Shown here piece by piece: positions 1 through 8,438 of a stretch of 12,426 nucleotides of DNA. The first letter of the stretch is position 1, and each line of letters starts with the position of its first letter. Location of the stretch: the NCBI GenBank assembly GCA_035281005.1, contig DATEEV010000153.1, positions 1 through 12,426 on the forward strand, read 5' to 3'. The position numbers and the translations under genes are program-made. Source of the DNA: Microthrixaceae bacterium (GTDB lineage: Bacteria; Actinomycetota; Acidimicrobiia; Acidimicrobiales; Microtrichaceae). The notes beneath the pieces are model-generated. The model made no database searches and had not been told where the DNA came from. It saw nothing but the letters and a program-made list of their open reading frames with translations.

Positions 1-939
1 GCCCCCGCGCTCGGCGCCGGTCAGCCGGCCGGGTTCGAGCTCACCTACGACGGTTCGAGCCTGGTCACCCGGGTCGACGGCACCCTCGGCTACGACGCGG
101 GCGCGGGCGCCGGTCCGTCGGTGACGCTGCACCTCGAGTCCGGCCTGCTCGGCCTGAGCGGCACCGTGTGGGTCGCCGACCCCGCAGCCGGCGTGAACGT
201 CTCCGCCACCGGCCAGGTCGTGAGCTTCGGCGCCGACGCCCTGGGCAACGTGATCGGCCGCATCGACGGCGCGTCGCTGTCGATCGTCTTCTCGACCAGC
301 TCGGTCGCGGTCGCCCCCGGCACCGACCCCGCCCTCGAGGCGTTGCTCGCGACCGAGGCCACGTTCTGCCAGGACGCGCAACAGCGGCTCGCCGGCCTGC
401 TCGAGAGCGAGGTCCCACTCGCCTCGATCGCGAACTCCCGCGGCCTGAGCCGCGCCGCGTTCGCCAACGCGAAGTCCGGGCTCGTGCCGCTGGCGACGGT
501 CTCGTGGGCCGACACCACCGACGTGACCACCGAGTCGGGGGACCACGCGACGATCTCGCACCACATCAGCTGCAAGACCCGAGCCGCCGACCACGTCGCG
601 ACGACCGGGGTGACGACGTCAGCGACCGACGCGCCCTGCTCCACGCTGAACCAGCGTTCGATCGACCTGGCGCTCGCGCAGATGACCTTCGCCCAACAGG
701 CCGCCGTGACGCTCCCGACGCTGGTGCCCGACATCGTGCGCACGACGGGCTCGGAGTGGACGACGCCGCTGGCCCCGAGCGTCGAGTACTCGGCGGGACA
801 GCTCCGGGCCCACGCCCTGCTCACCCGCTGGAACGACCCGGCCTTCGAGCTCTTCCCGGACACGATCCGCGGGGTCCACTACTGCACCACCTGGTCGCCC
901 GCGTACGCCTACACGTTCCTCCTTGCCACACTTCCCTGA
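1..939 (+). CDS. Hypothetical protein, 5'-partial (Thr/Ser/Ala-rich, about 4 Cys; possibly exported). It is open to the window start. The stop TGA at 937-939 overlaps the ATG of the next gene.
   Basis: Frame 1 is open from nt 1 to 939. Composition is ordinary, with few W or C. The antisense ORF 90-863 shares the same wobble positions but is richer in W, C and S. The TGATG stop/start overlap with the downstream cupin gene supports this strand. Confidence 0.5.
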   Translation, partial: APALGAGQPAGFELTYDGSSLVTRVDGTLGYDAGAGAGPSVTLHLESGLLGLSGTVWVADPAAGVNVSATGQVVSFGADALGNVIGRIDGASLSIVFSTSSVAVAPGTDPALEALLATEATFCQDAQQRLAGLLESEVPLASIANSRGLSRAAFANAKSGLVPLATVSWADTTDVTTESGDHATISHHISCKTRAADHVATTGVTTSATDAPCSTLNQRSIDLALAQMTFAQQAAVTLPTLVPDIVRTTGSEWTTPLAPSVEYSAGQLRAHALLTRWNDPAFELFPDTIRGVHYCTTWSPAYAYTFLLATLP

Positions 940-1832
940 TGCGCCCTCACGTCGAGATCGTCGATTCCGCCGACCTGATCTGGCACCCCGCCGAGCTCCC
1001 GCTGTCCACGGGCTCGGCGCGCCAGCAGCACCTCGCCTACGACGAGGAGGACGGCTCGCTGTCCGCGAGGGTCCGCTTCGACACGGCCTGGAGCCGGCCG
1101 GCGGGGGTGCACGCGGCCGAGACGGAATGGTTCGTCCTCTCCGGCGAGGTGCGCCTCGGCGATGAGGTCCTGCGAGACGGTGGCTACTGGATGGCGCCGA
1201 CCGGGGTCCTGACGCCGGCGATCGAGGTCACCGAGGGCACCGAGATCCTGTTCTTCCGTGACTACGGCGACTGGAGCTTCGAGCCGGCGCAGGCCGACGC
1301 TCCCACGGTCCGCGACGACCAGGTGCTCGTCGTGGTGCACAGCGCGCAGATGGACTGGGTGCCGGTCGAGGTCGGCAGCCCCATGCGGTTCGACCTGGGC
1401 GGCACGCCGGTGCCGGGCCTGTTCATCAAGATGCTCCACCGCGACGAGACGACCGGCTTCTACACGCGCCTGATCAAGGCGCGCGAGGGCTGGCGCGAGC
1501 ACCCCCTCGCTCACCATCCCGTGTTCGAGGAGGCGTACTGCCTCGAAGGCGGGTTCGAGTACAACTTCGGCACCATGTGGCCGGGCACGTACTTCTTCCG
1601 GCCACCGCTGATCCGCCACGGCGACTTCACCGCCGCGCCCGAGTCGGGGTGCACCTGGATCGTGCGCTGCGACGGCGACCTGGTCGACTGGTACACCGAC
1701 GATGCCCGCATCGAGATGCACGGCACCCCGACCAACTGGGGGCCCGACCTGCCGCACACGATCGCACCCGTGCTGCCCCAGCCGGTCCGGTCACGCTCGA
1801 TCGGCGACATGCCCGACCGCGCCTACCAGTGA
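939..1832 (+). CDS. Cupin-fold protein with two cupin-like halves (ChrR/anti-sigma-like cupin). 297 aa from ATG 939 (MRPHVEIVDS...).
   Basis: The 168-1832 ORF has an Arg-rich N-terminus of poor quality. The protein-like part starts at ATG 939, in frame and overlapping the upstream stop by one nucleotide. Cupin-like motifs include ETEWFVLSGEVRLGDE..GGYWMAPTGV and PVFEEAYCLEGGFEY. The antisense ORF 909-1757 is a typical R/H/G-rich shadow. Confidence 0.7.
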   Translation: MRPHVEIVDSADLIWHPAELPLSTGSARQQHLAYDEEDGSLSARVRFDTAWSRPAGVHAAETEWFVLSGEVRLGDEVLRDGGYWMAPTGVLTPAIEVTEGTEILFFRDYGDWSFEPAQADAPTVRDDQVLVVVHSAQMDWVPVEVGSPMRFDLGGTPVPGLFIKMLHRDETTGFYTRLIKAREGWREHPLAHHPVFEEAYCLEGGFEYNFGTMWPGTYFFRPPLIRHGDFTAAPESGCTWIVRCDGDLVDWYTDDARIEMHGTPTNWGPDLPHTIAPVLPQPVRSRSIGDMPDRAYQ

Positions 1833-1847
1833 CCGACGCCCGGCGAT

Positions 1848-3704
1848 TCAGAGGTTCGTGCACACCGCCGCGGAGTTGACCGGGTCGCCGTCGAAGCGGT
1901 CGAGCAACCATGACGACGTCTCGGCCACGGTCTCCGAGGCCGCACCGCCGTGCCCGGCGTCGGGGTCGTTCAACAACTCGACGTCGGAGCCCGCCGCGCA
2001 CATCGCGGCCACGTTGGCCCGCGTCGTGTGCGGTTCGGTCGTCCCGCTCGGTCCGGTCGGGAAGAGGCTGTCGAGGCCGCCCGTGGTGATGAGCAACGGG
2101 CCCTCGATCGGCGCGTCGATCACGCTCTGGTCTTCGAGCACCGATCGAATCCCGTTCCACACGGGCGAGTCGGGGTCGGTGTAGGCCCCGGTGAACATCA
2201 TCGGCAGGCCGGGCTGCCAGATCCCCGCCGGATAGTTCAGCGGCCCGTTGTTGTAGCCGCCCGCGTAGTTGTAGAGCACGCCGCCCGGCGCGCCGTTGGT
2301 GGCCCACCCGCATCCCACGACCACCCGGTCCTCCCGGGGAATGGACCATGCGGAGTGCTTCCAGTCGAGGTCGTTGAACTCGTTGATCATCTGGTTCTTG
2401 TTCGGCGTGATCAGCGGCACCGACCCGGAGGGCATGGCCGACGGGCCGCTCGTGTACATGTTGTAGAAGGCGTTCCACCCGAGCGGGTCACCGCTGTTCA
2501 TCAGCGACGGGCCGACCGGGTTGAGCGACAGGTTGTTGAGCCGGATCGACTCCTGCGAGTTGTACAGATAGAAGCGGTTGAGCATCGTGCCGAGGTCGGG
2601 GAAGCCCGCGACGTCGGTGGACAGGCCCCAGAGGAGATGCGCACCGAGCGTCATCACGCTGGGCGAGTCGGGCGCGACCGCCCCGTCAGCCGGCCGCGGG
2701 TCGATGCCGCCGGCCTCGCCGGTCACCGCGTCGAGCCAGTAGTCGAAGCTCGCCTGGGGGTTCAGCGCCGGTGCCATCCCGATCGCGCCGACGAGATCGG
2801 TGCCGGCACCGTAGGTCGGCGCGAGCTTCGCCGCGGCGAGCGCGGCATGGCCGCCCTGAGAGTGACCCACCACCCCCCAGGTGAGGCTTGCCCCCACCGC
2901 CGACACCGCGCGCACGGCGTCGATCACGGTTCGGCCCGTCGTGTCGCGGGACAGGTACGGGTTGGAGTTGCCGGCCCAGTTCGGGCCGATCCCGATGTAG
3001 TACGGCGCCTGGACGACCTTGCCCTCCGCGAGGAACTCCGCAGCCAGGTCGGGCACGGCGACGGCCTCCGTCGAGCGGAGGGCCTCGATGAATTTCGCCG
3101 AGTAGGTGGCGTCGAGCGCCTGGTCGCAGGTGCTGTTGATGCCGGCGGTGCCGTGCGTGTACACGGCCTGGTCGGGCGACTGGCCCGAGATGACCGCGCT
3201 GGCTCGCATCGCCATCAGCGTCATCGCGTAGGCCTTCACACCGTTTGCGGTCTCGGTCACGTAGACGACCTGCGCGGCGATGCTGTTCTCGGGGTCGAAC
3301 GGTGACGGGACGACCGGTCGAACCTTGACCACCGAGCCGTTCACGGCGCCCCCGGGAGGGCTCACGCCGAGTGATGCCTCGATGTCGTTCTTGCAGATGT
3401 CGAGCAGGCTCGATGCGTGCAGCTCGGCGCTGAGGATCTCCCACGCCTGGCGCAGGTGGGCACGGTTCGCGGTCAGGCTCACCGAATCCCCGGTCCGGAT
3501 GATGAACTCGGGCAGGTTCGAGGGACACCCGTTGGGTCCGCCACCCGCGCCGGTGCCCGTGGTCGTCGCGCAACCGGCGAACACGAGCGCGACGACGAGG
3601 GCCGCCGCGATCAGTCCGCGGTGTCGCCTTCTACCGCTGTCGCGCCCAGCAGTGGCCGTGGCCACCTTCAGCACGACGCGCTCGCCCGCGCCGTCGTTGT
3701 GCAT
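1848..3704 (-). CDS. Secreted lipase of the LIP family (Pfam 'Secretory lipase'-like), a predicted lipoprotein. Catalytic serine motif is GHSQGG.
   Basis: The ORF is open to 3758. A better start is ATG at 3704 (MHNDGAGE...), with GGAG 7 nt upstream. An alternative is GTG about 15 codons further in. It has an N-terminal basic/hydrophobic signal (RRRHRGLIAAALVVALVFAGC) ending in a lipobox-like FAGC. The GHSQGG nucleophile elbow and a conserved YxxxxGxxxGP..W region are present. The 451-aa antisense ORF 1950-3305 is an R/G/V-rich shadow. Confidence 0.8.
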   Translation of the reverse strand: MHNDGAGERVVLKVATATAGRDSGRRRHRGLIAAALVVALVFAGCATTTGTGAGGGPNGCPSNLPEFIIRTGDSVSLTANRAHLRQAWEILSAELHASSLLDICKNDIEASLGVSPPGGAVNGSVVKVRPVVPSPFDPENSIAAQVVYVTETANGVKAYAMTLMAMRASAVISGQSPDQAVYTHGTAGINSTCDQALDATYSAKFIEALRSTEAVAVPDLAAEFLAEGKVVQAPYYIGIGPNWAGNSNPYLSRDTTGRTVIDAVRAVSAVGASLTWGVVGHSQGGHAALAAAKLAPTYGAGTDLVGAIGMAPALNPQASFDYWLDAVTGEAGGIDPRPADGAVAPDSPSVMTLGAHLLWGLSTDVAGFPDLGTMLNRFYLYNSQESIRLNNLSLNPVGPSLMNSGDPLGWNAFYNMYTSGPSAMPSGSVPLITPNKNQMINEFNDLDWKHSAWSIPREDRVVVGCGWATNGAPGGVLYNYAGGYNNGPLNYPAGIWQPGLPMMFTGAYTDPDSPVWNGIRSVLEDQSVIDAPIEGPLLITTGGLDSLFPTGPSGTTEPHTTRANVAAMCAAGSDVELLNDPDAGHGGAASETVAETSSWLLDRFDGDPVNSAAVCTNL

Positions 3705-3784
3705 TCGCCCGCTCCATCTCAGCTCCCTCGGCGAACGTATCAGTGCAACGACAGACACACCTCATGACCACCACCGCACGGGCC

Positions 3785-4297
3785 TCAACGGATGAGGGCG
3801 CGCGTCAGTGGCGGGCCGGCCTCACCCATCCAGGCATCGATCAGCGCGTCGGGCGCGTCGATGTCGTCGCCGGCGATGTAGAGGCCCGGCGCCGGGAGGC
3901 TGGCGCCGATCTCGGCCAGCACGGGGGTGAGGTGCAGGTTGACCGCCAGCGAGTGGTGGTAGGAGCCGCCCGTCATCAACGCGACGGTGGGCAGGCCGTC
4001 CAGCTCACCGTGGCCGAACTGGTCGAGAAAGAGCTTCACCAGGCCGGTGAAGGACGCCTTGTACGTCGGGCTCGCGACGACCAGCGCCCGCGCCGCGAGC
4101 ACCGAGGCCTTGGCGTCGCGGACCTGATCGCTTCCCCACTCGAGCAGGGCCGGACCGAGCTCGGCCAGGTCGATGGTGTCGACCGAGACGTCCGTTCCGG
4201 CGATCCGCGCCAGGTGAGCGCCGACACGTTCGGCCACGGACCGCGTCCGCGAGGCCCGTTGCGGATTGCCCACGACCACGACGATCGATTCGCTCAC
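3785..4297 (-). CDS. NADPH-dependent FMN reductase family protein (SsuE/MsuE-like flavin reductase), about 170 aa, GTG start.
   Basis: The ORF 3785-4645 begins with translated repeat DNA. The protein-like part starts at GTG (4297), with GAGGGAG 5 nt upstream (VSESIVVVVGNPQRASRTRS...). Family motifs are LVVASPTYKASFTGLVKLFLD and a Gly-rich N-terminal loop. It is the right length for this family. Confidence 0.75.
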   Translation of the reverse strand: MSESIVVVVGNPQRASRTRSVAERVGAHLARIAGTDVSVDTIDLAELGPALLEWGSDQVRDAKASVLAARALVVASPTYKASFTGLVKLFLDQFGHGELDGLPTVALMTGGSYHHSLAVNLHLTPVLAEIGASLPAPGLYIAGDDIDAPDALIDAWMGEAGPPLTRALIR

Positions 4298-4301
4298 GGC
4301 A

Positions 4302-4371
4302 GCTCCCTCGGTGCTGGTCCCTCGAGGCAGGTCCCTCGAGGGAGGTCCCTCGATGCTCGTCCCTCGTCGGC
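4302..4371. repeat. Phased tandem repeat of 5 x 14 bp. The core TCCCTCG starts at 4304, 4318, 4332, 4346 and 4360 (units gcTCCCTCGgtgct / ggTCCCTCGaggca / ggTCCCTCGaggga / ggTCCCTCGatgct / cgTCCCTCGtcggc).
   Basis: Direct reading of the sequence shows an exact 14-nt period. On the minus strand each unit reads CGAGGGA, a Shine-Dalgarno-like sequence. Unit 1 is the functional SD of the FMN reductase GTG start. The array lies in the divergent intergenic region 4298-4432. Confidence 0.8.
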
Positions 4372-4432
4372 TGGTTGCTAGCACGTCGACCCGTACGCTC
4401 GGGGCCGACGGACCGAAACGGGAGGTCGCGCG

Positions 4433-4699
4433 ATGCCTCACAAGCTCGGACACACCTTCGACCATTTCGCCAGTCGAACGGCGCGGGTCGCGGGAAGCGC
4501 CTATGCCTTCCAGCACTCGTCGAACAAGGATTCCGAGGCCATCCAGGTGAAGCTCGACGAGATCATCGCGGCGACCAGGGGAGCCAGCAACCGGCTGATC
4601 GCGATCGAGCACCGCGAGGACGATGAGCTCGAGGCCCTCGAGCAACGGTTCGAGCGCCTCGCTCGGCGAGCCAAGCCGTGCCCCCGGAACGACGCATGA
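4433..4699 (+). CDS. Low-affinity iron permease (Fet4-like, PF04120)-related small protein that lacks the central transmembrane core. 88 aa; either a soluble remnant or an in-frame deletion derivative.
   Basis: The ATG at 4433 is preceded by GGGAGG (8 nt). The N-terminus FDHFASRTARVAGSAYAF matches the family N-terminal motif (FxRFAxxxAxxxGSxxAF). The C-terminus QHSSNKDSEAIQVKLDEIIAATRGASNRLIAIE...ELEALEQRFERLARRA matches the family C-terminal motif (QNxQNxDxxAIxLKLDELIRAxxxAxNxLxxLE..EELE). The roughly 45-aa, two-helix membrane segment normally between them is absent. The family assignment is from memory of the motif. Confidence 0.6.
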   Translation: MPHKLGHTFDHFASRTARVAGSAYAFQHSSNKDSEAIQVKLDEIIAATRGASNRLIAIEHREDDELEALEQRFERLARRAKPCPRNDA

Positions 4700-5619
4700 A
4701 CGCGGCGGGAGATCACCCCGACGAGCGCGTGGTCGAGGAGATCTACGAGGCGATGGCGAGTCGAGCCTTCGACCGGCTCTTCGAGCTCGTGCACGAGGAC
4801 GTGGTGATCACTCAGGACCCGGCACTGCCGTGGGGCGGCCGCTTCGAGGGCCACGACGGCCTGGCCACCTTCGCGCTGGGCCTCACCGGCACCATCGAGT
4901 CGCAGGTCACCACCCAGGCGATCGCCCGCGAGGGCCGCCCCGACGAACCAGGCGACGTCGTGCAATGCGGCCACACCCGGGGCACCGTCGTCGCGACCGG
5001 GGTCCCGTTCGACGTCGCCGAGATCCACCGTTGGACGATCCGCGACGGTCGCGCCGTCCGCGCCCACTTCACCATCGAGACGGCGGCCATGCTCACGGCG
5101 CTCGGCGCCGAGGCCGAGACCTGTCCCGTCTGCGGTTTCGTGTGGTCGGCGGTGGCCCGCGAGGAGGTGGGAGCGCGGGTCGTCGCAGCGACTCGAGCCG
5201 TCGCCGACGAGCTGCGTTCACACTCCGACGACGCCGTTGCGCGCCGACCGGAGCCAACCCGCTGGTCGGCGCTCGAGTACGCCGCCCACATGCGAGACGC
5301 GCTCTATCACCTTCGCGACCGCTTCGTCATCGGCCTGGCCGAGGACGCCGCCACCTTCAAGCCGCTCTACCGCGACCTGCGGGTCGAGCTGGGGCTCTAC
5401 CGCGATGATCGACGGGAGGTCGTCGCGACCGAGCTCGAGCTCGCCGCCGACCTGTTCGCGCGGACCTTCGCCGTCCTCGACGACGCCCAGCTCGCGCGCC
5501 CGATCCTGTACACATATCCGGCCGAACAGGTCCGCACGTTGTTATGGATGGGCCAGCACGTGGTGCACGAGCTGGAGCACCATCGCGGCGACGTCGAGGC
5601 CGGCCTTCGGGCCGGCTGA
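4696..5619 (+). CDS. Two-domain protein. N-terminal SnoaL/NTF2-like (ketosteroid-isomerase-like) domain fused to a C-terminal DinB_2/mycothiol-maleylpyruvate-isomerase-N-like metal-binding domain, with a CPVCG Cys pair and a HELEHH motif.
   Basis: ATG 4696 overlaps the upstream TGA (ATGA). An in-frame GTG at 4678 is an alternative start. The first half has the alternating beta-strand pattern typical of SnoaL-like proteins (VVEEIYEAM...VHEDVVITQDP...WTIRDGRAVRAHFTIE). The second half has a DinB-like four-helix pattern with conserved His residues (YAAHMRDALYHL; HVVHELEHHRGD). Confidence 0.7.
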   Translation: MNAAGDHPDERVVEEIYEAMASRAFDRLFELVHEDVVITQDPALPWGGRFEGHDGLATFALGLTGTIESQVTTQAIAREGRPDEPGDVVQCGHTRGTVVATGVPFDVAEIHRWTIRDGRAVRAHFTIETAAMLTALGAEAETCPVCGFVWSAVAREEVGARVVAATRAVADELRSHSDDAVARRPEPTRWSALEYAAHMRDALYHLRDRFVIGLAEDAATFKPLYRDLRVELGLYRDDRREVVATELELAADLFARTFAVLDDAQLARPILYTYPAEQVRTLLWMGQHVVHELEHHRGDVEAGLRAG

Positions 5620-5629
5620 AGCTCAGCCG
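5599..5629. terminator. Two stacked GC hairpins at the convergent junction of genes 4696-5619(+) and 5623-5931(-). GCCGGCC-ttcg-GGCCGGC (5599-5616, UUCG-type tetraloop) and CGGCTGA-agc-TCAGCCG (5613-5629), the latter containing both stop codons.
   Basis: The inverted repeats were read directly. There is no U-tract, which is common for actinobacterial I-shaped terminators. A candidate bidirectional terminator or mRNA 3'-end stabiliser. Confidence 0.3.
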
Positions 5630-5931
5630 AGGATCTTGGCCTTCTGGGCCGCGAACTCCTCGTCGGTGAGCACCCCTGCCGCGTGGAGCTCACCGAGCTT
5701 GGTGAGCTGGTCGAGCACGTCGTCGCCACCACCGCTCGGGGCGGGAGCGGGAACCGGCGCAGGCGCCTGCTGGGCCATGTCCTGGTAGTAGGCCTGGTTG
5801 CGGTTCGCCATCGTCTGGGCGTCCTGCTCGGCAAACTTGCCAGCCTGGCGGCGAGCCACCCGTCCGCTGACCGCAGTGGCGGTGCCGGCGATGACGGCCG
5901 TCCGGGCCATCCCTCGCATGAGTCCTGGCAT
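5623..5931 (-). CDS. SHOCT-domain protein (C-terminal DDVLDQLTKLGELHAAGVLTDEEFAAQKAKIL), with an Ala/Gly-rich N-terminus and a Pro/Ala linker.
   Basis: ATG at 5931 has GAGAGGA 10 nt upstream, overlapping the stop of the preceding gene. The SHOCT motif was recognised by eye. Confidence 0.75.
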   Translation of the reverse strand: MPGLMRGMARTAVIAGTATAVSGRVARRQAGKFAEQDAQTMANRNQAYYQDMAQQAPAPVPAPAPSGGGDDVLDQLTKLGELHAAGVLTDEEFAAQKAKILG

Positions 5932-5944
5932 GTGCTTCGTCCTC

Positions 5945-6388
5945 TCAGTTGTCGAGCGCTTCGAGCGCGTCGAGCGTATCCATGATGTCCTGCCCCGGGA
6001 TCCGCAGGCTCGCGACGAGTTGGCCGCCGGCCTTGCGCGCCCCGGCCACGAAGGGGATCGCCCATGCGTTCTCGTAGACGATCAGCACGGCGACCGTTCC
6101 CGGCGCGATGGCATCGGCTGCCTCGGTGAGCTCATCGTCGCCGAGCAGACCCGATCGCGCACCGGCGAATGCCGCGAAGCCACCGACGGAATCGGGCTCG
6201 AGGTCGGTGATGTCGACGCCCGAGAACGTGCCATCCTCGTCCTTGCGGATGATGAGGAGGTCGTACAGCCGGATCACCCCACGTTCGATCAGGTCGAGCA
6301 GCGCCTCGGCCGCGTCAGCGCCCTTGCCGTTGCCCGGGAACTCGATCAGCACGGCGTCGATCGGCCCGTGCACCTCGATGTCACTCAT
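5945..6388 (-). CDS. Conserved hypothetical protein, 147 aa, acidic, no TM. N-terminal motif is GPIDAVLIEFPGNGKG. It resembles the actinobacterial DUF6325-type family (identifier from memory, unverified).
   Basis: ATG at 6388 has AAGGGAAG upstream. It sits 13 nt from the downstream SHOCT gene and 28 nt after the lipoprotein gene. Its helical, acidic composition supports this over the antisense frame. Confidence 0.65.
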   Translation of the reverse strand: MSDIEVHGPIDAVLIEFPGNGKGADAAEALLDLIERGVIRLYDLLIIRKDEDGTFSGVDITDLEPDSVGGFAAFAGARSGLLGDDELTEAADAIAPGTVAVLIVYENAWAIPFVAGARKAGGQLVASLRIPGQDIMDTLDALEALDN

Positions 6389-6416
6389 CTTCTTCCCTTC
6401 ACAGTTGCCCGTCAGA

Positions 6417-6827
6417 TCAGTCGTCGCCCGTGGTGCAGTCTGCCAGGCCCTGGAGCAAACCGTCCCAGGCGGCCTGCGAAACCTCGTCGACGTCCTCGCG
6501 AATGCTCTGCGCGCTGCGCTGGAGCACCGCGACGTCCTGTTGTAGCAGTTCGTCGTTGCCCTGTACCGAGTGCTCGGCGTAGTCGGCGAGGTTGTTGTCG
6601 ATGTCAGCGCGATCCTCGGCAGTGAACATGGCGTACTTTCCGGCGAGGTCGTCGAGTTGCTCGTCGACGTCCTCGAGGGCCTCCTCGCGGTCCTCCGGCG
6701 ACTCGGCCTCGCGCACGTCGCAGAGCGCTTCGCCGAGTTTCTTGCCGTCGCGCTCTGCGCTGTACTTCTGGCTGCAGCCGCTCGCCACGAGCACCAAGGC
6801 CGCTGTGATCAACACGAGTCGCTTCAT
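6417..6827 (-). CDS. Small, very acidic predicted lipoprotein. Signal peptide MKRLVLITAALVLVASG|C with lipobox LVASGC; the mature form is helical, D/E-rich, with two further Cys.
   Basis: ATG at 6827 has GAGAGAGGAAAG upstream. Only 1 nt separates it from the hdeD-like stop (TGAcATG). Confidence 0.7.
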   Translation of the reverse strand: MKRLVLITAALVLVASGCSQKYSAERDGKKLGEALCDVREAESPEDREEALEDVDEQLDDLAGKYAMFTAEDRADIDNNLADYAEHSVQGNDELLQQDVAVLQRSAQSIREDVDEVSQAAWDGLLQGLADCTTGDD

Positions 6828-6828
6828 G

Positions 6829-7407
6829 TCACTTTCCTCTCTCGACGGAGTGCTGAACAGAACGCAGCTGGAACGCCGTCACGATCTCGGTGATGCCCCG
6901 CATCACGGCGCCGATCCCCACCCACAACACGAGGAGCCACGATGAGCGGCCCGGATAGCCGAGGGCCCAGAGGCCGATGGCGATCTGAGCGATCCCGGCC
7001 GCGAGCAGCAGGCCCCAGAGGTCGAGCTCGTGGCGCGCCGCGATACTGAAGATCACATCGAAGATCCCCTTGAAGAGGAGGTACCACCCGATGAGGAGCG
7101 CCAGGATTCCGAACGTCTGGAACGGGCTCAGGAGCGCCGCGATGCCGGCGACGAGGAACAGGATGCCGAGCAGCGCGTGAAGCCATCGCCAACCCTCGAG
7201 CATCGCCGTGACCATGAACTCGTTGATCCCGGCCGCGATCAGCACGAAGCCCAGCATGTAGCCGATCGTCGCGGCGGAGGTCGGGTCGAATCCCAGGACC
7301 AGGAACGAGATCACGATCCATGCGATCCCGGTGAGCAGGAACAGCCACCAGGCCGGCGAGGTGTCGCGTTCCGCCTCCCTGATGTCCGCGTCGGTGACAA
7401 CGCTCAT
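6829..7407 (-). CDS. hdeD: HdeD-family (DUF308) acid-resistance-type integral membrane protein, 192 aa, about 6 TM segments (WWLFLLTGIAWIVISFLVLGF...).
   Basis: ATG at 7407 has a strong AAGGAGGAAACG RBS. The hydrophobic periodicity and the N-terminal WWL motif are typical of HdeD/DUF308. It is the first gene of a four-gene minus-strand cluster. Confidence 0.85.
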   Translation of the reverse strand: MSVVTDADIREAERDTSPAWWLFLLTGIAWIVISFLVLGFDPTSAATIGYMLGFVLIAAGINEFMVTAMLEGWRWLHALLGILFLVAGIAALLSPFQTFGILALLIGWYLLFKGIFDVIFSIAARHELDLWGLLLAAGIAQIAIGLWALGYPGRSSWLLVLWVGIGAVMRGITEIVTAFQLRSVQHSVERGK

Positions 7408-7517
7408 CGTTTCCTCCTTGTCGGCGGCGGCGGACGCCGCTCGTTCAGCTTGTCCAAAGCGTCAGACACCGTAGATCGGGGCGCATGGTCCCCGGCGGAT
7501 GATCGGACGAACTTCTG

Positions 7518-8438
7518 GTGAAGGTCTTCCTGCTCGGTGGCACCGGAGCGATCGGCCGTCCGGCGGTCGACGCGCTGGTCGCTGCGGGTCACGACGTGAG
7601 TGCGTTGGCCCGAAGCCCGGAACGAGCGCGCACGCTGCGCGCGTTCGGCGCGCGTCCGGTCGAGATCTCGATGTTCGATCTGCCCGCGCTCACCCAGGCC
7701 TTCGTCGGTCACGACGCGGTGGTGAACCTCGCCTCGGCGATGCCGTCGACCGTCCAGTTCGTGCGGCTCGGCGCATGGCGTGACACTCAGCGAATCCGCA
7801 CGGTCGGCTCCGCGCTCGTCGTCGACGCCGCCCTGGCGTCGGACGTGTCGATGCTCGTGCAGGAATCGGTGGCGATGCTGTATGCAGACAAGGGCGACTC
7901 ATGGATCGACGAGCACGCCGCGGTCGATCGGTATCCCATGGCACAGGGGAACCACGCCGCCGAGGCGAGTGCCGAGCGGTTCACCAGCGCCGGTCGAACT
8001 GGGATCGTCCTACGCTTCGGGCTCTTCTACGGACCCGGGGCTCGCCACAGCGAGCAGTTCCTCGCCATGGCCCGGCTCGGTGTGGTGCCCGTCCTCGGTC
8101 ATCCGAGCGGATATCTGTCGTCGATCCACGTTGCTGACGGCGGACGAGCCGTCCCCGCGGTGCTGAGTGCCGCCGCCGGTGTGTACAACGTCGTCGACGA
8201 CGAACCGCTCACGAAGCGCTCCTATGCCGACGCGCTGGCACACGGCGCAGGTCGTCGTCCGTGGCTCCGGGCTCCCGGACGCCTGGCGCAGTTGCTCGGA
8301 CATCGCACGACGTCACTCACCAGATCGATCCGGGTGACCAACGCCAAGCTCACCGCAGCGACCGGATGGGCCCCGGAGTTCCCCAGTGCCCGAGAGGGCT
8401 GGCTGGCGACCGCGACCGCGCTCCAGCGCGGGCGATGA
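7518..8438 (+). CDS. NAD(P)H-binding protein of the atypical SDR / NmrA-like / NAD-dependent epimerase-dehydratase family (N-terminal MKVFLLGGTGAIGRPAVDALVAAGHDV Rossmann motif).
   Basis: GTG at 7518, with GGACGA 7 nt upstream. The GxxGxxG Rossmann fingerprint is at the N-terminus. The gene is 306 aa and divergent from the hdeD-like cluster. Confidence 0.8.
   Translation: MKVFLLGGTGAIGRPAVDALVAAGHDVSALARSPERARTLRAFGARPVEISMFDLPALTQAFVGHDAVVNLASAMPSTVQFVRLGAWRDTQRIRTVGSALVVDAALASDVSMLVQESVAMLYADKGDSWIDEHAAVDRYPMAQGNHAAEASAERFTSAGRTGIVLRFGLFYGPGARHSEQFLAMARLGVVPVLGHPSGYLSSIHVADGGRAVPAVLSAAAGVYNVVDDEPLTKRSYADALAHGAGRRPWLRAPGRLAQLLGHRTTSLTRSIRVTNAKLTAATGWAPEFPSAREGWLATATALQRGR

Follow-up and report, generated by a model that had tools for sequence, protein, structure and literature searches.

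A five-unit 14-nt tandem repeat upstream of an FMN reductase gene in a Microthrixaceae bacterium resembles a lineage-specific slippage minisatellite

Introduction

Reiterated operators and iterons are exemplified by the direct-repeat boxes of response regulators and by heptad arrays that are bound by ribbon-helix-helix repressors. In the promoter repeats of Mycobacterium tuberculosis, the units mostly measure tens of base pairs. These promoter tandem repeats have been described as phase-variable (PMC12817950). Additional ribosome-attracting sequences are described as ribosome standby sites in 5' leaders, following de Smit and van Duin's model (PMC5934652, PMC5924895). The known ones consist of unstructured tails, frequently A/U-rich, that exert their effect by way of S1 or of non-specific 30S binding, and they are not phased arrays of Shine-Dalgarno (SD) copies. 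To our knowledge, reiterated SD mimics have not been characterised as a natural leader element, and a literature search on tandem or multiple Shine-Dalgarno sequences found nothing relevant.

Here we describe a tandem array of five 14-nt units in the window, a stretch of 12,426 nt with a G+C content of 69%, which is a contig of an NCBI TPA MAG of a Microthrixaceae bacterium (proteins HKY14480-82). Like bacterial intergenic minisatellites and VNTRs, those of M. tuberculosis promoters included, the array is head-to-tail, non-coding and situated in the promoter or leader region of an actinobacterial gene, and its degraded edges and plausible slippage origin are further points in common with intergenic minisatellites. 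In contrast to the M. tuberculosis promoter repeats, its unit is much shorter (14 bp), its copy number is the same in two variants, and the unit holds a ribosome-binding site (RBS) rather than demonstrated promoter elements. The array shares with standby sites the presence of extra ribosome-attracting sequence upstream of the true RBS in a presumed leader, but its copies are weaker than the real SD. A short invariant core, direct orientation, fixed spacing, divergent flanking genes and partial dyad symmetry are reminiscent of reiterated operators and iterons. Unlike those, the array has no cognate regulator nearby, no further sites and no conservation in homologous loci, and its period is 14 bp instead of ~10.5 or 7-8 bp.

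Sequence and layout of the array

In a 14-nt register from position 4298, the array reads GGCAGCTCCCTCGG / TGCTGGTCCCTCGA / GGCAGGTCCCTCGA / GGGAGGTCCCTCGA / TGCTCGTCCCTCGT, which are designated units 1 to 5. An earlier note, made from the sequence alone, had reported that TCCCTCG recurs five times at exact 14-nt intervals; both the register layout, in which the heptamer starts at 4304, 4318, 4332, 4346 and 4360, and TRF confirm this. The TRF call spans 4298-4366 with a period of 14, 4.9 copies, 80% matches and a score of 82, by which it exceeds every other array of the window, and it is the only one whose period and position are non-coding. On the array strand, the heptamer is found at only two other places in 12.4 kb (3724 and 5910), close to the ~1.5 copies per strand that we estimate from base composition. 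A simple calculation gives a chance of the order of 1e-9 or less for five identical heptamers at fixed spacing. This is beyond chance and identifies a true tandem duplication; the array is thus a tandem repeat or minisatellite in the usual sense of at least two head-to-tail copies of a 10-100 bp unit. A period-7 satellite, (TCCCTCG)n or built from two related heptads, was considered and rejected because the alternate heptads, GTGCTGG, AGGCAGG, AGGGAGG and ATGCTCG, match the TCCCTCG core at only 1-4 of 7 bases.

Likeness is greatest among the central units, and the end units are degraded on both sides. A 10-nt box, GGTCCCTCGA, is common to units 2-4, and unit 3 contains a perfect 12-nt palindrome, TCCCTCGAGGGA (4332-4343), at the centre of the array. 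Positions 4318-4329 form a copy of this palindrome with one mismatch, and the two could pair into a 10-bp hairpin or cruciform with arms at 4318-4327 and 4334-4343. The spacer types follow each other in the order GGCAG, TGCT, GGCAG, GGGAG and TGCT; their alternation suggests a multi-step duplication history with few independent mutations. The array had been said to fill the space between the divergent genes, which does not hold, as it covers 69 of the 135 intergenic bases (4298-4432). A decayed sixth unit at 4367-4381 is possible. As a separate observation, GGGAGGTCCCTCGATGC, within the array at 4340-4356, matches GGGAGGTCGCGCGATGC, which comprises the RBS and ATG of the plus-strand gene at 4420-4436, at 15 of 17 bases, the two lying 80 nt apart.

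All nine departures from the unit consensus fall outside the heptamer. In simulations, at least seven contiguous invariant columns arise with P = 0.012 when nine mismatches are placed at random. Since the spacer types imply that the differences are inherited rather than independent, a simulation with seven independent events was also considered, and it gives P = 0.07. The unit 1 core is constrained in any case as the true SD. Heptamer invariance is hence only marginally non-random, and a constraint on all five cores is at most suggested by the sequence pattern. The coordinates of the array and of the flanking features are collected in Table 1.

Table 1. Coordinates of the array and its flanking features in the window.
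Feature	Position	Strand	Basis or detail
LIP-like (secretory-lipase fold) gene, downstream of FMN reductase	1848..3704 (or 3758)	-	Pfam and gene call
NADPH-dependent FMN reductase, 170 aa, GTG start 4297	3785..4297	-	Pfam PF03358, 5.7e-24; ENA-contig gene call
Tandem array	4298..4366	.	consensus unit GGCAGGTCCCTCGA; TRF, register layout, two repeat families
Unit 1 core, working Shine-Dalgarno of FMN reductase	4304..4310	-	CGAGGGA(G); sequence and anti-SD duplex energy
Unit 2-5 cores	4318-4324, 4332-4338, 4346-4352, 4360-4366	-	each CGAGGGAC, weaker SD-like
Non-repeat half of intergenic region	4367..4432	.	TACGCT 4394-4399 (+); SD GGGAGG 4420-4425 (+)
Low-affinity iron permease fragment (Iron_permease), 88 aa	4433..4699	+	profile positions 61-116 of 128 only
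SnoaL_2 + DinB_2 fusion gene	4696..5619	+	Pfam, GC3

Flanking genes and the start of the FMN reductase gene

The array was originally placed between an FMN-reductase/lipase pair and a divergent pair made of an iron-permease remnant and a SnoaL-DinB gene, and these assignments are correct by Pfam and gene calls. Three features locate the start of the FMN reductase: position 3 of the FMN_red profile aligns to residue 5, the homologues start with M-S-x-S-I-x-V-V-G-N-P at the same place as GTG 4297, and GC3 collapses upstream of this codon. On this sequence evidence, GTG 4297 is the right start. A longer FMN reductase whose N-terminus would run through the array (ORF 3785-4645) was rejected on the basis of the GC3 drop and of the Pfam alignment beginning at residue 5, and it is also ruled out by a period that is not a multiple of three.

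The LIP-like gene, which is separated by an 80-nt spacer, is probably in the same operon as the FMN reductase. Within this spacer, the 11-mer CGAGGGAGCTG of the FMN reductase RBS is found again at 3720-3730 on the minus strand. Behind it, at a distance of 2 nt, lies an ATG (3717) whose frame differs from that of the called lipase start (3704). This copy could be a duplicated RBS segment or belong to a tiny upstream ORF. On the other side of the array, the stop codon of the iron-permease fragment overlaps the ATG of the next gene (ATGA at 4696-4699). The fragment has strong GC3 and a good SD, its membrane-spanning part is seemingly missing, and it may survive as a leader ORF for translational coupling. 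The plus strand of the array itself also holds a canonical SD, GGGAGG, which is followed by 7 nt and an ATG (4353) that opens a 65-codon ORF. This ORF was rejected as coding, as it has no GC3 signal and is out of frame with the Pfam-supported gene.

Shine-Dalgarno character of the units

Read on the minus strand, unit 1 runs into the gene as CGAGGGAGCTGCC-GTG, that is, GGGAG, then 5 nt, then the start codon GTG 4297. The claim that the gene-nearest unit is the actual SD of the FMN reductase is therefore upheld, the start being backed by Pfam and by the N-termini of the homologues, and the sequence likewise bears out the presence of an SD-like core on the minus strand of every unit. Unit 1 is in line with the purine-rich SDs of other genes on the contig, and it is the only unit in which complementarity to the 16S 3' end is placed 4-9 nt before a verified start. 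Units 2-5 read GAGGGAC where unit 1 reads GAGGGAG. The anti-SD duplex, calculated with a generic anti-SD and not with the MAG's own 16S, amounts to -8.5 kcal/mol for unit 1 versus -6.4 kcal/mol for units 2-5, and the contig's real SDs attain -9 to -12 kcal/mol with the generic anti-SD. No ATG, GTG or TTG lies within 7 nt behind any of units 2-5, so that these units create no uORFs. The base by which unit 1 departs from the others is precisely the one that improves its anti-SD pairing (GGGAG versus GGGAC), which makes selection visible on the real RBS only.

These properties bear on a translational role, in which the array would lie in the presumed FMN-reductase leader and its orphan SD-like motifs would form a 30S standby or loading platform, or would act as decoys that vie with the true SD for the single anti-SD-like stretch CCUCCCUCG of the leader. 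Unit 1 is necessarily transcribed, and no part of the array is more than 69 nt from the start codon; every unit pairs with the anti-SD, at -6.4 kcal/mol for the weaker copies, and the lack of uORFs is compatible with such a role. In the MFE fold of the leader the units take part in pairing, and the true SD has the lone CCUCCCUC as its pairing partner. The standby mechanism in 5' leaders is moreover established (PMC5934652, PMC5924895). Against this stand the weakness of units 2-5 relative to both unit 1 and the contig's real SDs, a minus-strand leader fold that is no better than its dinucleotide shuffles (z -0.57), and the absence of a homologue with such a leader, while known standby sites are unstructured tails and not SD arrays. 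The suggestion that the array is an enhancer or standby element made of reiterated SD sequences thus finds no support in the energies or in a structure signal of the leader, and we consider this role unlikely.

A second assembly and the copy number

The ENA metagenome contig k141_879038 (23.6 kb; L001) overlaps positions 1-8014 of the window with 34 substitutions in 8014 nt and carries the identical five-unit array. The presence of the same array in a non-identical second assembly rules out an assembly artefact. Not one substitution separates the two contigs between 3784 and 4879. As far as the rest of the overlap is concerned, the substitutions are strongly clustered, 13 of them in 5433-5767 and 5 in 2340-2451, and the long identical stretches are 3784-4879 and 6024-8014. 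This clustering may reflect mosaic strain variation or recombination.

No copy-number variation is seen between the two strain-level variants, which differ by 34 SNPs per 8 kb and both carry five units; the two assemblies are population consensus sequences, in which minor length variants would be missed. The result bears on the suggestion that the array is a hypermutable VNTR, a contingency locus whose copy number would shift the spacing between promoter and RBS or between promoter elements and thereby switch expression. The location of a tandem array in the promoter or leader region of an actinobacterium agrees with this suggestion, as does the precedent of phase-variable promoter tandem repeats in Mycobacterium tuberculosis (PMC12817950). 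The units, however, fall short of near-perfect identity: at 80% likeness, and with a 10-nt identical box in three units only, they would be a poor substrate for slippage, and the arrays of the two variants are identical in spite of the SNPs around them. A slippage-prone, expression-tuning VNTR, as proposed in the earlier note, is accordingly judged quite improbable.

Homologous loci

The closest homologue of the FMN reductase is 68% identical, and the four homologous loci (L122-L125; 62-68% identity) lie in contexts unrelated to the window, for example TauD plus ABC transporter, GntR/amidohydrolase and acyl-CoA dehydrogenase neighbourhoods. The repeat is absent upstream of the FMN_red homologues at all four. 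With a best homologue at only 68% identity, unrelated contexts and no repeats, there is no alignable orthologous intergenic region. For the LIP-like protein only 5 homologues were found, at about 60% identity. In all three recovered contexts, including L132 (3374-5827), the immediate divergent neighbour of the LIP-like gene is a small SnoaL_4 gene, and no FMN_red intervenes; in the window, the FMN reductase gene and the iron-permease fragment lie between the lipase gene and the SnoaL-DinB gene. L132, the one lipase locus with readable DNA, has no tandem repeat in its 213-nt intergenic region, which brings the readable upstream regions that lack the array to five of five (four FMN_red homologues and L132). 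The SnoaL proteins of the lipase loci show no detectable homology to the SnoaL-DinB protein of the window (E 0.14), and conserved synteny is therefore not claimed. The comparison suggests that the junction of FMN_red, array and iron-permease fragment is a lineage-specific rearrangement.

A comparison with related loci had been proposed as a check on the array. As far as the data allow, its outcome is orthologous loci that lack the repeat and an absence of copy-number variation, which on these two points is the result that the earlier note had named as refuting its view. The comparison set consists of two variants and includes no close relatives, and it is a weak test of both conservation and variation.

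Independent arrays in other genomes

Among 185,579 species genomes, a scan for TCCCTCG in triplicate with a 14-nt spacing gave at least 120 loci; the source genome is not among the matches listed. Among the 120 matches listed, 96 are heptamer satellites and 24 are true 14-nt arrays, whose spacers are unrelated to those of the window. The satellites are (TCCCTCG)n or two-heptad variants such as TCCCTCG/TCTTTCG (for instance L066 358-476, L114 1290-1464 and L046 5666-5882). Their hosts among the matches listed include Sorangium, Anatilimnocola, many Bacteroidota, Planctomycetota, Acidobacteriota, Gemmatimonadota and other MAGs; there are often several satellites per genome, and the C-rich heptamer is widespread across phyla.

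Three actinobacterial arrays were looked at alongside that of the window. In Streptomyces radicis DS1-2 (L120 2609-2643, reverse strand), three CGAGGGA cores lie 14 nt apart and the array ends 6 nt before the ATG of a ScfR/RamB-like regulator gene (HTH_3 + Peptidase_M78 + ScfRs; short-chain fatty acyl-CoA regulator). The RBS is thus situated in the last unit, the same layout as in the window, and the spacers are unrelated. At least five units are found upstream of a TacA-like antitoxin gene in an Actinomycetota MAG (L044), and four units of TCCCTCGGTTGCTG upstream of a gene in an Acidimicrobiaceae MAG (L030). The intergenic region of the latter, at ~4900-5170 on the reverse strand, holds three arrays side by side, GTGTCTCT x4, TCCCTCGGTTGCTG x4 and the 22-mer GCCGTCAGATCCGCTGGGTCGC x3. 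These three loci surfaced since the search pattern required a CGAGGGA core and 14-nt spacing, and, their spacers being unrelated, they do not share descent with the window array. Among the 24 listed true 14-nt arrays, that of S. radicis alone terminates with the SD of a gene verified by Pfam; no more than two others (L097, L116) lie next to ORFs, and these are doubtful. Arrays of this type arise again and again, each on its own, and they form no family.

Signals, regulators and possible protein binding

An Rfam 15 covariance search of both strands of 3600-5000 gave no match at E<=1, and a scan for sigma-70 consensus promoters and intrinsic terminators found none. The intergenic region has a single TANNNT (-10-like) hexamer, the plus-strand TACGCT at 4394-4399, which is outside the array and downstream of it on that strand. 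Folding of single-stranded DNA gave a z-score of -1.39, which is not significant. No regulator gene is adjacent, the neighbours being enzymes or DUFs; the nearest is an IclR gene ~4 kb away, which is paired with its own divergent operon. When up to 2 mismatches are allowed, the frequency of palindrome TCCCTCGAGGGA in the rest of the window and in L001 (~18.6 kb of the organism) is at chance level. In JGI metagenome contigs, a search for two GGTCCCTCGA boxes 14 nt apart returned 6 unrelated two-unit matches and no family.

These results bear on the proposal that the array is a set of phased operator sites. As a protein-binding array, the five GGTCCCTCGA-type boxes would be putative sites through which a DNA-binding protein controls one of the divergent promoters or both. 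The heptamer stays unchanged among varying spacers (P 0.012-0.07), the 10-nt box is identical in three units, and a perfect 12-nt palindrome occupies the centre. The array also lies between divergent operons, just upstream of the plus-strand gene's only -10-like hexamer. With regard to geometry, the earlier note was right that a 14-nt period is off the helical repeat: the units are out of helical phase (~10.5 bp or multiples), although three units make 42 bp, or four turns, so that every third box, and only every third, would lie on the same face of the helix. The off-helix spacing counts against protein binding, as do the lack of an adjacent regulator gene with the IclR gene so distant, the chance frequency of the palindrome and box in the window and L001, a metagenome recurrence limited to the few unrelated two-unit matches, and the absence of the array from the homologous loci. 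Binding of a regulator is for these reasons doubtful, albeit not negligible.

A rightward transcript would contain five copies of UCCCUCG, a C-rich RNA of anti-SD type that could be a small RNA or, as leader of the plus-strand gene, could mask the GGGAGG SD. SD sequences are complementary to UCCCUC, and the MFE fold of 4298-4450 on the plus strand pairs unit 1 with the SD region of the plus-strand gene. That fold is no better than its dinucleotide shuffles (z +0.21), the plus strand has its only -10-like hexamer downstream of the array, no terminator is predicted, and no Rfam family matches, actinobacterial C-rich sRNAs included. A functional plus-strand RNA is thus highly improbable.

Origin of the array

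The array has the look of an ordinary slippage repeat specific to its lineage, and not of a regulatory device that could be demonstrated. The regulatory readings are less likely and unsupported, and each of them has at least one tested feature against it. With somewhat better than even confidence, we regard the array as a lineage-specific minisatellite, by now partly decayed, in which slippage duplicated the segment with the RBS of the FMN reductase gene. Replication slippage of a 14-bp segment carrying this RBS would have produced the array, and the central palindrome TCCCTCGAGGGA may have aided slippage. The start-proximal unit would have stayed the working SD, leaving the four distal units as weaker copies with no start codon, which would be surplus DNA in the leader or promoter spacer of the FMN-reductase/lipase operon. 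The main effect would be ~56 extra bases between the RBS and an upstream promoter region shared with the divergent gene pair, and no dedicated regulatory role would be needed. The slippage origin, the transcription through the array and the near-neutrality of its units are what we infer.

Several observations favour slippage. Alike centre units with degraded ends are the usual pattern of slippage-homogenised arrays; selection is visible at the real RBS only; the repeat is absent from the readable homologous loci, its unit is not dispersed, and there is no Rfam or fold signal; the second assembly has an identical array; and many bacteria possess 14-nt and 7-nt arrays that contain this heptamer and are otherwise unrelated. 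Other points speak against it. With units that diverge by ~13%, the array would predate the 0.4% split of the two variants by far, but its unit number has neither shrunk nor grown. The site between divergent transcription units is where cis-regulatory sites are expected. Finally, the confinement of all mismatches to positions outside the heptamer (P 0.012-0.07) hints at constraint. Were all five cores under selection, the array would be an undescribed cis-element, either a phased platform in the leader whose weak SD mimics shield the true RBS from CCUCCCUCG as decoy or standby, or a 14-bp-register array for an undescribed factor that coordinates two divergent stress-type operons; we hold this to be distinctly unlikely.

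Implications

A tandem repeat in an intergenic or leader region is a known kind of element, and the layout with the RBS in the last unit recurs by chance duplication, as in S. radicis. If the array is simply a slippage repeat, it is of minor importance: it exemplifies how the leader of a high-GC actinobacterial gene can gain copies of an RBS-bearing segment, and it cautions that translational control does not follow from SD-like cores in a repeat. Its importance would be greater if the extra units were shown to tune translation or transcription, and the locus of Streptomyces radicis, which has the same layout, would offer a culturable test system.
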